64,000 nt of DNA. It comes from a virus (Duplodnaviria; Caudoviricetes). The notes below the pieces were generated by a model. The model searched no databases. It was given only the letters and a program-made list of their open reading frames with translations, and was not told where the DNA came from. Each line of letters opens with the position of its first letter. Positions within the stretch are counted from its first letter, which is position 1. The stretch spans positions 96,001 to 160,000 of the IMG/VR virus record IMGVR_UViG_3300037424_000434. One strand, 5' to 3'. This document shows, in pieces, positions 21,806-24,124 of the stretch. The position numbers and the translations under genes are program-made.

Positions 21806-22138
21806 GTGAGATATGACGAATATGTTAAACGACCAAACGAAGAACATGAATACACAGAAGAACAGATTCGAGAGGTTGTTAAATGTAAAACCGATTTGAT
21901 GTATTTTATACGCAACTATATATATATTGTACATCAGGATTCGGGCGTACAGTTGTTTGATCCATATGACTATCAGATAGATTTGTTAGAAAAATTTCAA
22001 AATCATAGATTTAACGTATGTCTATTATCTCGACAATCGGGTAAATGTTTAGAGGGTGATACTGTCATAAAACTTCGTAATAAGACCACGGGCGAAATCA
22101 AAGAAATAACAATGGAAAATTTTTTTAACCAAACATAA
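21806..22138 (+). CDS. gp17: Terminase large subunit part 1 (80-aa extein to Walker A Lys) plus split-intein N-half 1
   Basis: YFIRNYIYIVH...FDPYDYQ..LL..FQNHRFNVCLLSRQSGK | CLEGDTVIKLRNK... Confidence 0.93.
   Translation: MRYDEYVKRPNEEHEYTEEQIREVVKCKTDLMYFIRNYIYIVHQDSGVQLFDPYDYQIDLLEKFQNHRFNVCLLSRQSGKCLEGDTVIKLRNKTTGEIKEITMENFFNQT
22046..22135 (+). mobile_element. Split intein 1, N-half (30 aa)
   Basis: CLEGDT block A followed by a stop after 30 aa. Confidence 0.9.
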
Positions 22139-22239
22139 ACCCGATTACTAGGCTAATAAAAATACAGTAAATTTTGGTATTATTGGTTATTGAGAGATAG
22201 ACAAAGAAAGTGTGATTAAAGAATGTTTGGAGTATTTGA

Positions 22240-22581
22240 ATGGCAGAATTTGTTGAAGAAAAATATAGTGATGAATGGGAAGTAGAAACACCCGATGGAT
22301 GGAAAGATTTTGGGGGTATAGGGAAAACAATAGAATATCAAGTATATGAGGTTTGTTTTACTGACAACACTTCTATTAAATGCGCCGATACTCATATTTT
22401 TATATTAAATGGAGTCGAAGTTTTCTGCAAAGATTTGGTATCAGGTAATGTAATAGATTCCATTGAAGGAACCTGTAAAGAAATATCACATATTATCAAA
22501 ACAAAAGATTGTGATAATATGTATGACTTGTTGGGTGTTGATGGTTCAATATATTATACTGACAATGTTGCTTCTCACAAC
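22240..22581 (+). mobile_element. Split intein 1, C-half (114 aa)
   Basis: WEVETPDGW, block B CADTH, block F MYDL, ends SHN with +1 Ser. Confidence 0.9.
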
Positions 22582-22947
22582 TCAACTATTGTTGCCGCTT
22601 TTGCTTTATGGTATGCATGTTTTCACGGACACAAAAATATCGGTATAGTCTCGAACAAAGAAGAATCAGCAAAAAACTTTCTACATCGATTAAAGTATAT
22701 GTATGAACTAATGCCGGGTTGGTTGAAGCCCGGTGTACCCGGTTGGGCGCAAAAGACTGTTGAATTCGACAATCATACGAAAATTTATACTGCTGCAACA
22801 TCCAAAGATTCATTCCGTGGTGAGCCGATGGGGATGTTGATTTGTGTGACTGGAGATAACACCGTGAAATTACGGGATAAAATCACTGGTGAAGAGGTGA
22901 CAATGACAATGGAAGAACTGGCCAATGACCTGAGAATGGATTCATGA
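22240..22947 (+). CDS. gp17: Terminase large subunit part 2: IntC1 (114 aa), 87-aa extein, IntN2 (34 aa)
   Basis: ...CADTH...MYDLLGVDGSIYYTDNVASHN | STIVAAFALWYACF...SNKEESAKNFLHRLK...ATSKDSFRGEPMGMLI | CVTGDNTVKLRDK... Confidence 0.93.
   Translation: MAEFVEEKYSDEWEVETPDGWKDFGGIGKTIEYQVYEVCFTDNTSIKCADTHIFILNGVEVFCKDLVSGNVIDSIEGTCKEISHIIKTKDCDNMYDLLGVDGSIYYTDNVASHNSTIVAAFALWYACFHGHKNIGIVSNKEESAKNFLHRLKYMYELMPGWLKPGVPGWAQKTVEFDNHTKIYTAATSKDSFRGEPMGMLICVTGDNTVKLRDKITGEEVTMTMEELANDLRMDS
22843..22944 (+). mobile_element. Split intein 2, N-half (34 aa)
   Basis: CVTGDN block A, then a stop overlapping the nuclease ATG. Confidence 0.9.
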
Positions 22948-23807
22948 CTACATACAAAAGAGACTACAAAGAAGAGTTCAACGATTTGGTTGAAAGTGAA
23001 GGTTATGTCCTTTTATCTGAGTACAAAAAAGACAAAGAACGTGTTGGTATAAAGTGTCCGAATGGTCATATCTATAAAATAAAACCAAATACTTTCAAAA
23101 ATGGTTGTAGGTGTTCATCTTGTCCTACAAAAAGACAAGTAAAATCAAAACAAGAATTTTTTGATATGTTATATGTTGATGGTTATGTTATCACAACAGA
23201 ATACGTTGATGTAAGAACAAGGGTGGGTCTGATGTGTCCAAAAGGTCACGAATGGACCACTACCCCTCATGGATATAAAAAGGGGTATAGGTGTTCGATA
23301 TGTGCAGGAAATAATCATAGTTACGCTAAAGACGAATTTTTAGGGATGATAGAGGAAGAGGGTTATAGTTTAATATCAGATTATATCAACTCAACAACAA
23401 GAATAAAAATTAAATGTCCAAATGGACATGAATGGGATGCAATACCATCCGAATTCAAACATCAATATTTTAGATGTCCTATATGCGCGGGTAGTTCTGG
23501 CCAAAGATTATTACAGGAAATGTTATCAGAACATATTGATGATGAAGTGGTTTATAATGACCGCAAAATTCTTGGTGGACTTGAGTTGGATATATACTAT
23601 CCAAAATTGAATATTGCAATAGAATATCAGGGTAATTATTGGCATTCATTGCCAGAAGTTGTTAAACGAGACGAAAGAAAACGACAATTATGTGGTAATC
23701 TTGGTATCAAGTTAATAGAGGTATGGGATACTGATTTTTTAAACGACAAACAAACTGTTATTAAATATGTTAACGAGGAAAGGTGTTTATGGAACAGGAA
23801 TTCATAA
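22944..23807 (+). CDS. Homing endonuclease (three Zn-ribbons plus Vsr/DUF559-like domain) between the halves of split intein 2
   Basis: CPNGHIY..RCSSC, CPKGHEW..RCSIC, CPNGHEW..RCPIC. LELDIYYPKLNIAIEYQGNYWH. Overlaps both flanking gp17 parts. Confidence 0.85.
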   Translation: MTTYKRDYKEEFNDLVESEGYVLLSEYKKDKERVGIKCPNGHIYKIKPNTFKNGCRCSSCPTKRQVKSKQEFFDMLYVDGYVITTEYVDVRTRVGLMCPKGHEWTTTPHGYKKGYRCSICAGNNHSYAKDEFLGMIEEEGYSLISDYINSTTRIKIKCPNGHEWDAIPSEFKHQYFRCPICAGSSGQRLLQEMLSEHIDDEVVYNDRKILGGLELDIYYPKLNIAIEYQGNYWHSLPEVVKRDERKRQLCGNLGIKLIEVWDTDFLNDKQTVIKYVNEERCLWNRNS

Positions 23808-24124
23808 AGAATAGTAGGTATGAGATATATGGGGAGTCTGGTTGGGAGAATTTTGATGGTGTTGTTGTTAATACAGGAGACTTTGATATTTATGAAATAA
23901 AAACCGATAACCATTCAATAAAATGTACAGATAAGCACAAAATATATACCAGCGAGGGCGTGAGTACAGCCGATGAGGTGGAAAGGGGTGACATTTTATT
24001 TATACAGGGTGGCATTACCGAAGAGGTTATATCAACACAATATACAGGCAAACAAAACACTACATACGATATATTCAACAGTGATTCACATAAAGTCCAT
24101 ATAAATCAAATACTTACGTCTAAT
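23789..24124 (+). mobile_element. Split intein 2, C-half (112 aa)
   Basis: YEIYGESGW, block B CTDKH, TYDI, ends TSN (no penultimate His) with +1 Cys. Confidence 0.88.

Follow-up and report, generated by a model that had tools for sequence, protein, structure and literature searches.

Organization of the terminase locus

The 64,000-nt stretch of DNA analysed here (positions 96,001 to 160,000 of the IMG/VR virus record IMGVR_UViG_3300037424_000434; hereafter, the window) belongs to an uncultured member of the Caudoviricetes, whose 235,765-nt record was assembled from a metagenome, is rated 98% complete and is classed as 'linear'. Its T4-type gene for the terminase large subunit (TerL) consists of four open reading frames (ORFs), P1 to P4, all on the plus strand, which begin or end with the halves of three putative split inteins. 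We concentrate on pair 1, located in the Walker A motif (site A), and pair 2, located next to the Walker B motif (site B), which together extend from the first codon of the N-terminal half of pair 1 (IntN1) at position 22046 to the last codon of the C-terminal half of pair 2 (IntC2) at position 24124. TerL motifs are numbered according to the established literature on T4 gp17.

The first ORF, P1 (21806-22138), encodes extein 1, an 80-amino-acid (aa) segment (21806-22045) that ends with LSRQSGK at the Walker A motif, followed by IntN1. Extein 1 matches the terminase large subunit family phrog_5989 (E 3e-23) and aligns with T4 gp17 as far as SRQLGK (E 1.4e-11). P2 (22240-22947) comprises IntC1, the +1 Ser that opens the 87-aa extein 2 (22582-22842; Pfam Terminase_6N), and IntN2. 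Extein 2 runs from the Walker A Ser to the GMLI that precedes Walker B, and its alignment with gp17 (E 1.2e-12) starts at the residue after K166, the Walker A Thr, and ends at I252. The end of extein 2 corresponds to the gp17 position two before D255 and, therefore, the Cys of the following segment occupies the last hydrophobic position of Walker B and precedes its Asp and the catalytic Glu. This segment, the 36-aa extein 3a (24125-24232), opens with C-D-E, and its CDEFAFV motif is kept in uninterrupted homologues. It is part of P3 (23783-25813), which consists of IntC2, CDEFAF and the rest of extein 3a, a 431-aa contiguous (cis) LAGLIDADG intein, a 58-aa extein and IntN3. Finally, P4 (25800-26906) carries the 115-aa IntC3, ending with ILSHN, followed by CEF and the nuclease domain; together with the 37-aa IntN3, it makes up pair 3 at the site FG|CEF (site C).

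Removal of the five intein parts in silico yields a product of 514 aa, which is 53-54% identical, over about 508 aa, to six uninterrupted TerL proteins from IMG/VR (518-544 aa). The alignment is colinear, and every junction is free of gaps and surplus residues. There is no second TerL in the 98%-complete record, which makes the four-piece gene the only one; thus, DNA packaging by this phage should require all the splicing events. Scans of the locus for the T4 late-promoter motif and for sigma-70 promoters and terminators gave hits at or below chance.

An earlier note on this DNA, made by a model from the sequence alone, had placed the three pairs at GK|S, LI|CDE and FG|CEF, and both the gp17 alignments and the colinear spliced product bear this out. 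The ORFs and junctions likewise agree with its reading of a Ser+1 residue in pair 1, a Ser-Asn end in pair 2 and very short N-halves throughout (30, 34 and 37 aa), and the resemblance it saw between the C-half of pair 3 and the AceL/Cat inteins is evident from the match of IntC3 to CatC, the C-terminal chain of Cat (PDB 6dsl_B; E 2.4e-14).

The split intein in Walker A

Pair 1 interrupts the Walker A motif at SRQSGK|S, which is equivalent to K166|T167 of T4 gp17. IntN1 (CLEGDTVIKLRNKTTGEIKEITMENFFNQT; 22046-22135, plus strand) is a 30-aa segment, CLEGDT...FFNQT, that begins with Cys1 and is terminated by the stop codon at 22136-22138; its pattern, C....T.IKIRNKKTGEI.EI.IGEFY, matches 36 other unique IntN halves found at site A. 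The 114-aa IntC1 (22240-22581, plus strand) has the block B sequence C-A-D-x-H, ends with VASHN and is followed by the +1 Ser. Residues A49, D50, H52, D96 and the terminal S112-H113-N114 are invariant in the alignment of its relatives (alignment A1), and replacement of the block B Thr by Ala is a family-wide feature. IntC1 matches CatC with an E-value of 3.6e-8 and shares 28% of its residues with IntC2 and 24% with IntC3 of the same genome. The two halves are separated by a 101-nt spacer (22139-22239) that contains no endonuclease gene and has the sequence GGAG 7 nt upstream of the ATG of P2. Read-through of the stop codon after IntN1 can be ruled out, as the frame changes between P1 and P2, and TAG and TAA are among the stop triplets of the spacer.

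The split intein at Walker B and its endonuclease gene

Pair 2 is inserted at MLI|CDE, one residue ahead of the Walker B Asp-Glu. Its 34-aa N-half (CVTGDNTVKLRDKITGEEVTMTMEELANDLRMDS; 22843-22944, plus strand) starts with Cys1 and reads CVTGDN...RMDS; in an alignment of 20 site-B IntN halves (A3), C1, G4, K13 and T15 are invariant. The 114-aa C-half (23783-24124, plus strand; starting at GTG 23783 or ATG 23789) has T-D-K-H in block B, YDIFNSDSH in block F and the terminal sequence ILTSN, followed by the +1 Cys of CDE. Among 24 site-B C-halves (alignment A4), H50 and D94 are invariant, T47 and H101 nearly so, and the downstream CDEFA is invariant as well. When searched alone against PDB, IntC2 gave only non-significant matches (E 0.2-0.7); the profile built from alignment A4 matched CatC over its full length, from CatC residue 9 to the end (E 1.2e-13), and also matched VidaL (E 3e-4) and the gp41-1 and DnaE inteins.

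A structural model of the IntC2-IntN2 complex scored 0.76, compared with 0.02 for the best of three controls; the score mark applied is attained by 58 of the 80 solved complexes and two of the 110 mismatched pairs. At least 97% of the contacts were common to the runs, and the predicted local distance difference test score of the partner was at least 85. The predicted contacts of IntN2 residues 1-14 on IntC2 fall into three groups: residues 44-47 and 50 belong to the block B region, residues 89-95 surround the block F Asp, and residues 110 and 113 are close to the C-terminal junction. In the model, the N-half of pair 2 thus docks on the C-half and would complete its fold.

The halves of pair 2 flank a free-standing gene for a 287-aa homing endonuclease (22944-23807, plus strand), whose start overlaps the stop codon of P2 (ATGA) and whose end overlaps the start of P3. 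The product belongs to phrog_559 (E 6e-62) and combines DUF4379 zinc ribbons with an MTES_1575 restriction endonuclease (REase) domain from Pfam; this catalytic domain is similar to that of I-Bth0305I (PDB 3r3p; E 1.6e-4).

A paralogue of this endonuclease (362 aa; phrog_559, E 5e-71) is encoded at window positions 20620-21708, directly after a PIN-PhoH gene (19425-20609). It ends with ...KLFKGQDTYGHIVLRGGK, an echo of the C-terminus of PhoH, ...RLFKGQDNYGHIVLGGSK, which suggests that the paralogue was inserted at the 3' end of phoH with duplication of the target.

Distribution in public sequence data

Two scans of IMG/VR yielded 131 loci, which were classified by the position of their extein segments, and at least 378 stretches matched a profile of IntC1 with its extein. 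Split inteins with short N-halves were found at site A in 44 loci (37 of them unique), with IntN of 31-59 aa and IntC of 114-156 aa; all 44 start with Cys1 and end with HN. The +1 residue is Thr in 25 of these loci and Ser in 19, and the Ser+1 of pair 1 is therefore simply the Ser/Thr of Walker A. Contiguous inteins at this site are 154-329 aa long. Site B is occupied by such split inteins in 27 loci (21 unique), with IntN of 30-50 aa, IntC of 101-123 aa and Cys1 in 26 cases. Their last two residues are KN in 22 loci, HQ in two, SN in one and HN in one, with one further locus mis-registered, so that the lack of a penultimate His is a trait of the site-B family; the +1 residue is the Cys of CDE in 26 of the 27, and the cis forms have 126-161 aa. 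Empty sites are also present in IMG/VR.

A collection of 5.8 billion proteins contains 11 proteins of 231-242 aa that have the IntC1-extein-IntN2 build of P2 (33-74% identity), four with the IntC2-extein-IntN3 build, and also forms that lack intein 2 or have a contiguous intein 1. Both A and B are split in seven of the sampled records (one contig being counted twice owing to a duplicate fetch), and all three sites are split in locus L093 and in the window. In a search of GenBank phages for DNA nearly identical to window positions 19000-28000, no match was found. The recurrence of the same architecture in dozens of independent contigs places pairs 1 and 2 far beyond chance and indicates that they are real.

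Grouping by site of insertion is apparent in a maximum-likelihood tree of 84 inteins: site A forms one side of a branch with a Shimodaira-Hasegawa-like approximate likelihood ratio test (SH-aLRT) support of 96, and 23 of the 24 site-B entries fall into one set, with cis and split forms interleaved. An ORF of 200 aa or more, on the same strand, lies between the halves in 32 of the 44 site-A loci and in 24 of the 27 site-B loci, and the product resembles the endonucleases of the window in 21 and 17 of these, respectively. Gaps shorter than 400 nt, comparable to the 101-nt gap of pair 1, occur at 12 site-A and three site-B loci. Two site-A inteins are nearly identical although one is split (L061; 39 and 115 aa with 986 nt between them) and the other is contiguous (L064; 174 aa, the split point being bridged by a short linker). 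Accordingly, the split and contiguous states interconvert at this loop, and the two loci look like a case of recent gain or loss of an endonuclease gene.

Proposed splicing pathway

Both pairs have the nucleophiles of class 1 inteins (Cys1 and Ser+1 in pair 1; Cys1 and Cys+1 in pair 2), and the block B His, the block F Asp and the terminal Asn are present and conserved. The N- and C-halves (30/114 and 34/114 aa) are encoded in separate ORFs, as in the S2-type atypical split, and in different frames. We consider it very probable that pairs 1 and 2 are functional, naturally split class 1 inteins that are divided after the first helix, in the same way as AceL-TerL and GOS-TerL.

The four terminase polypeptides would be translated separately, and each short IntN would fold onto its IntC to give a complete HINT domain. 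By the standard steps of intein chemistry, Cys1 would form a thioester that is handed over to the +1 nucleophile, i.e. the Walker A Ser in pair 1 and the Cys before the Walker B Asp-Glu in pair 2; the terminal Asn would then cyclise and a peptide bond would join the exteins. Splicing of pairs 1-3 and of the cis LAGLIDADG intein would produce one 514-aa TerL, with Walker A, Walker B and motif III becoming complete only after all four events. The lopsided split itself probably reflects a free-standing Vsr-like homing endonuclease gene that lodged in the loop of a mini-intein (a 'fractured gene'), and that would have been retained in pair 2 and lost from pair 1.

Several observations weigh against functional splicing. 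Pair 2 lacks the penultimate His, having Ser in its place (Lys in most relatives), and the pair 1 family carries Ala instead of Thr in block B; either substitution could slow splicing. Active inteins include exceptions at both of these positions. The activity of either family is deduced from sequence, and the source phage is known solely as an uncultured metagenomic contig. In addition, the favourable score of the IntC2-IntN2 model may reflect likeness to, or memory of, the solved relative Cat.

Partner specificity of the three pairs

The earlier note took the co-occurrence of three pairs in one gene to imply natural orthogonality, a conclusion that the N-half sequences do not support. Over 28 residues, IntN1 and IntN2 share 50% identity, compared with a mean cross-site identity of 0.32 +/- 0.10 and mean within-site identities of 0.42 at A, 0.56 at B and 0.29 at C; the two halves are thus as similar as members of one family. 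Co-occurrence indicates that the combination is workable, which is no proof that the halves ignore each other.

We weigh two possibilities. The chances appear evenly balanced that the pairs are not mutually orthogonal and that the short N-halves partly cross-react, correct assembly being achieved through kinetic preference, local extein context or mere excess; the natural orthogonality suggested by the earlier note would then be incomplete. This fits the high identity of IntN1 to IntN2 and also the predicted interface: of the 18 IntN2 positions expected to touch IntC2 (1-14, 23-24 and 26-27), nine are identical in IntN1 and about four more are conservatively replaced, so that half of the modelled contact positions would be common to both. 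There are precedents, too. GOS-TerL accepts the N-fragment of AceL-TerL (PMC11766414), and most cross-reactions in a 24 x 24 matrix involved inteins in which an atypical split site produces a short peptide (PMC7090010). On the other hand, the combination of split sites A and B in seven records, and of all three in L093 and the window, is evidently viable and recurrent, and selection against cross-reaction is plausible, given that an essential protein would be lost to wrongly joined or cyclic products. That pairs 1-3 constitute a naturally co-evolved trio, whose members splice efficiently, are orthogonal to one another and have chemically accessible N-halves of 30-37 aa, appears doubtful on present evidence.

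Alternatives to splicing

If the half-inteins no longer spliced, their only role might be to dock with each other and keep the pieces of the terminase associated non-covalently. There is a precedent in a fragmented phage ribonucleotide reductase, whose assembly is reported to depend on interaction domains of mobile-element origin (PMC3045599), and the absence of the penultimate His from pair 2 could be read in the same way. However, the nucleophiles and catalytic residues are kept across 37 and 21 unique members of the two families, a leftover domain of 144-148 residues, whether inside the loop of Walker A or one residue ahead of the Walker B Asp-Glu, would hardly be compatible with ATP binding, and the cis members found in the single TerL of viable phages have to be removed. 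We consider docking without splicing highly improbable.

Least credible of all is that this TerL is a decaying pseudogene, or that its ORF breaks are accidents of an assembly that is indeed metagenomic and classed as 'linear': the same intein loop is broken in isolate genomes as well as in dozens of independent contigs, every piece opens with a start codon of its own (with GGAG ahead of that of P2), the record holds no second TerL, and the intein halves are 60-65% identical to their nearest relatives beside 82-86% for the extein and are, therefore, conserved rather than decaying.

Other inteins and possibly broken genes in the same phage

The contiguous 431-aa LAGLIDADG intein (window positions 24233-25525; CVAGD...GHQ|TPNG) interrupts TerL at the motif IIIIS|TPNG, and its last two residues are His-Gln rather than His-Asn. 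A terminal Gln was also seen in the site-B split inteins P0038, P0039, L076, L093 and that of gp224 of the phage SCTP-2.

Outside the window, a gene for a DnaB/gp41-like helicase (G000:C1:18719-22018, locus L135) looks split in its P-loop. The first ORF ends with ...KIHGFK|CVSYNSYIHIQENG..., and the next one opens with a half similar to IntC1 (E 1.7e-12), which ends ...GILSHN|SNVMA, and contains another intein N-part (CLHVDTDVY...) near its C-terminus. At G000:C1:180343-183642 (locus L137), also outside the window, a long ORF for a coiled-coil ATPase, Rad50/gp46-like as judged by eye alone, opens with another IntC1-like half (...GILSHN|SSFLE; E 3.9e-7) and is preceded by a 358-aa ORF; this may be a third gene of the phage that is broken in an ATP-binding loop.

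Implications

Few natural split inteins with a short N-half have been characterised, namely AceL-TerL, GOS-TerL, two VidaL inteins and PolB16. Such inteins are sought for protein semisynthesis, in which the N-half can be chemically synthesised. At the least, the locus described here adds one more terminase gene riddled with inteins and homing endonucleases. Beyond that, TerL holds at least two further site-specific families of this build, with dozens of natural variants and with both Ser/Thr+1 and Cys+1 junctions, and in some phages two or three of these families are found within one essential protein. The variants form a natural panel suited to finding the residues that set partner specificity, and the gene offers a natural case of an ATPase that would have neither Walker A nor Walker B until trans-splicing is complete. 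Should the three pairs prove orthogonal, they would permit the ordered one-pot ligation of four segments, one of the junctions being Cys1/Ser+1, and would reveal how a peptide of some 30 residues, with 50% identity to its neighbour, can encode specificity.

Comparison with known systems

The closest characterised systems are the terminase inteins AceL-TerL (25/104 aa; Cys1/Cys+1), GOS-TerL (37/115; Ser1/Cys+1) and the consensus of these, Cat (30/104) (PMC11766414; PDB 6DSL). AceL-TerL and GOS-TerL are atypical inteins split after helix alpha1, at the S2 position (PMC13014065). Pairs 1 and 2 have the same host protein, the HINT fold and the split point in common with this group, and are alike in build to its N-halves of 25-37 aa and C-halves of 104-115 aa (PMC11766414). 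They differ in their insertion sites and clades. The CatC chain runs on as ...SHA-CE, in agreement with site C (FG|CEF) but with neither GK|S nor I|CDE; from this chain and from the reviews, we infer that AceL and GOS are inserted at the CEF site. Pair 1 is further distinguished by the Ser/Thr+1 residue and the A-D-x-H block B, and pair 2 by the lack of a penultimate His. Pairs 1 and 2 thus lie outside the AceL-TerL/Cat allelic family, whose site is EF(G/E/A)|CEF; only pair 3 is found at FG|CEF. IntN3, a very short query of 37 aa, gave no match in PDB.

The second relevant group is that of fractured genes, in which the halves of a split intein surround a free-standing gene for a Vsr-like or GIY-YIG endonuclease (Dassa et al. 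2009, PMC2677866). The layout of pair 2, with its Vsr-like endonuclease of the I-Bth0305I family, is exactly the same. In PMC2677866, the one gp17-like locus of a terminase that is listed comes from Lake Gatun, and a single break per gene is described, unlike in the TerL of the window. Pair 1 has no endonuclease gene in the window, whereas an ORF of 200 aa or more is present between the halves in 32 of the 44 site-A loci.

Three sets of relatives were found among phages in GenBank. In the cultured Salicola phage SCTP-2 (MF360958), split inteins occupy both sites, in genes 267 and 224, which are annotated only as 'terminase large subunit'. The gp267 protein has a site-A IntC, extein 2 and a 96-aa site-B IntN (36% identity over 98% of P2), and gp224 has a 112-aa site-B IntC ending SQ|CDEFAFV, along with a cis intein (39% identity). 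Unlike those of the window, the two pieces are encoded about 39 kb apart and on opposite strands (L001, 4995-5888; L141, 2501-4585), the site-B halves of 96 and 112 aa encode overlapping portions of the HINT fold, and the IntC ends with Ser-Gln. The TerL of Kuttervirus members (Det7, SFP10 and Vi01-like phages) contains, in place of a split intein, a contiguous 159-aa mini-intein at SGK|T. It belongs to the family of pair 1, with the A-D-x-H block B, and IntC1 is 36% identical to its C-terminal part (E 2e-13); this intein resides in the single TerL of viable cultured phages. Finally, the Krischvirus vB_EcoM_G2494 and Campylobacter phages of the genus Fletchervirus have a short-N split intein beside Walker B of their T4-type TerL, with an IntC about 28-30% identical to IntC2. 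Their site, DE|CAF, is two residues downstream of the I|CDE of the window, and the intein ends with HN.

In the G2494 genome (L140, 745-3856), the sole annotation of TerL is a misc_feature, 'similar to large terminase protein'; the gene consists in reality of two ORFs with a split intein at IDE|CAF, and the IntN is fused in frame to a homing-endonuclease-like domain within one ORF.

A search of the literature, with the primary reports on AceL, GOS and Cat outside the comparison, found no paper that characterises split inteins at the Walker A or Walker B sites of TerL and nothing pertinent to the intein of Kuttervirus; a paper on an intein of the jumbo phage MIJ3 was set aside, as it deals with a PolB intein and not with TerL. 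The suggestion of the earlier note that pairs 1 and 2 represent new split-intein families holds in part. Their distinct sites, the site-specific grouping in the tree (SH-aLRT of 96 for site A) and the lack of a characterising paper in that search speak for it; their homology to CatC (3.6e-8 for IntC1 and 1.2e-13 for the site-B profile), their abundance in viral contigs and their unannotated relatives in the GenBank phages SCTP-2 and Kuttervirus speak against it. In particular, novelty can no longer be claimed on the grounds that close split homologues at the same sites are lacking, as 44 and 27 such loci were sampled from the sequence databases, even though none was encountered in the literature found. 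Pairs 1 and 2 are best described as variants of an established type of element, each uncharacterised and specific to its insertion site, and both are widespread in public sequence data.

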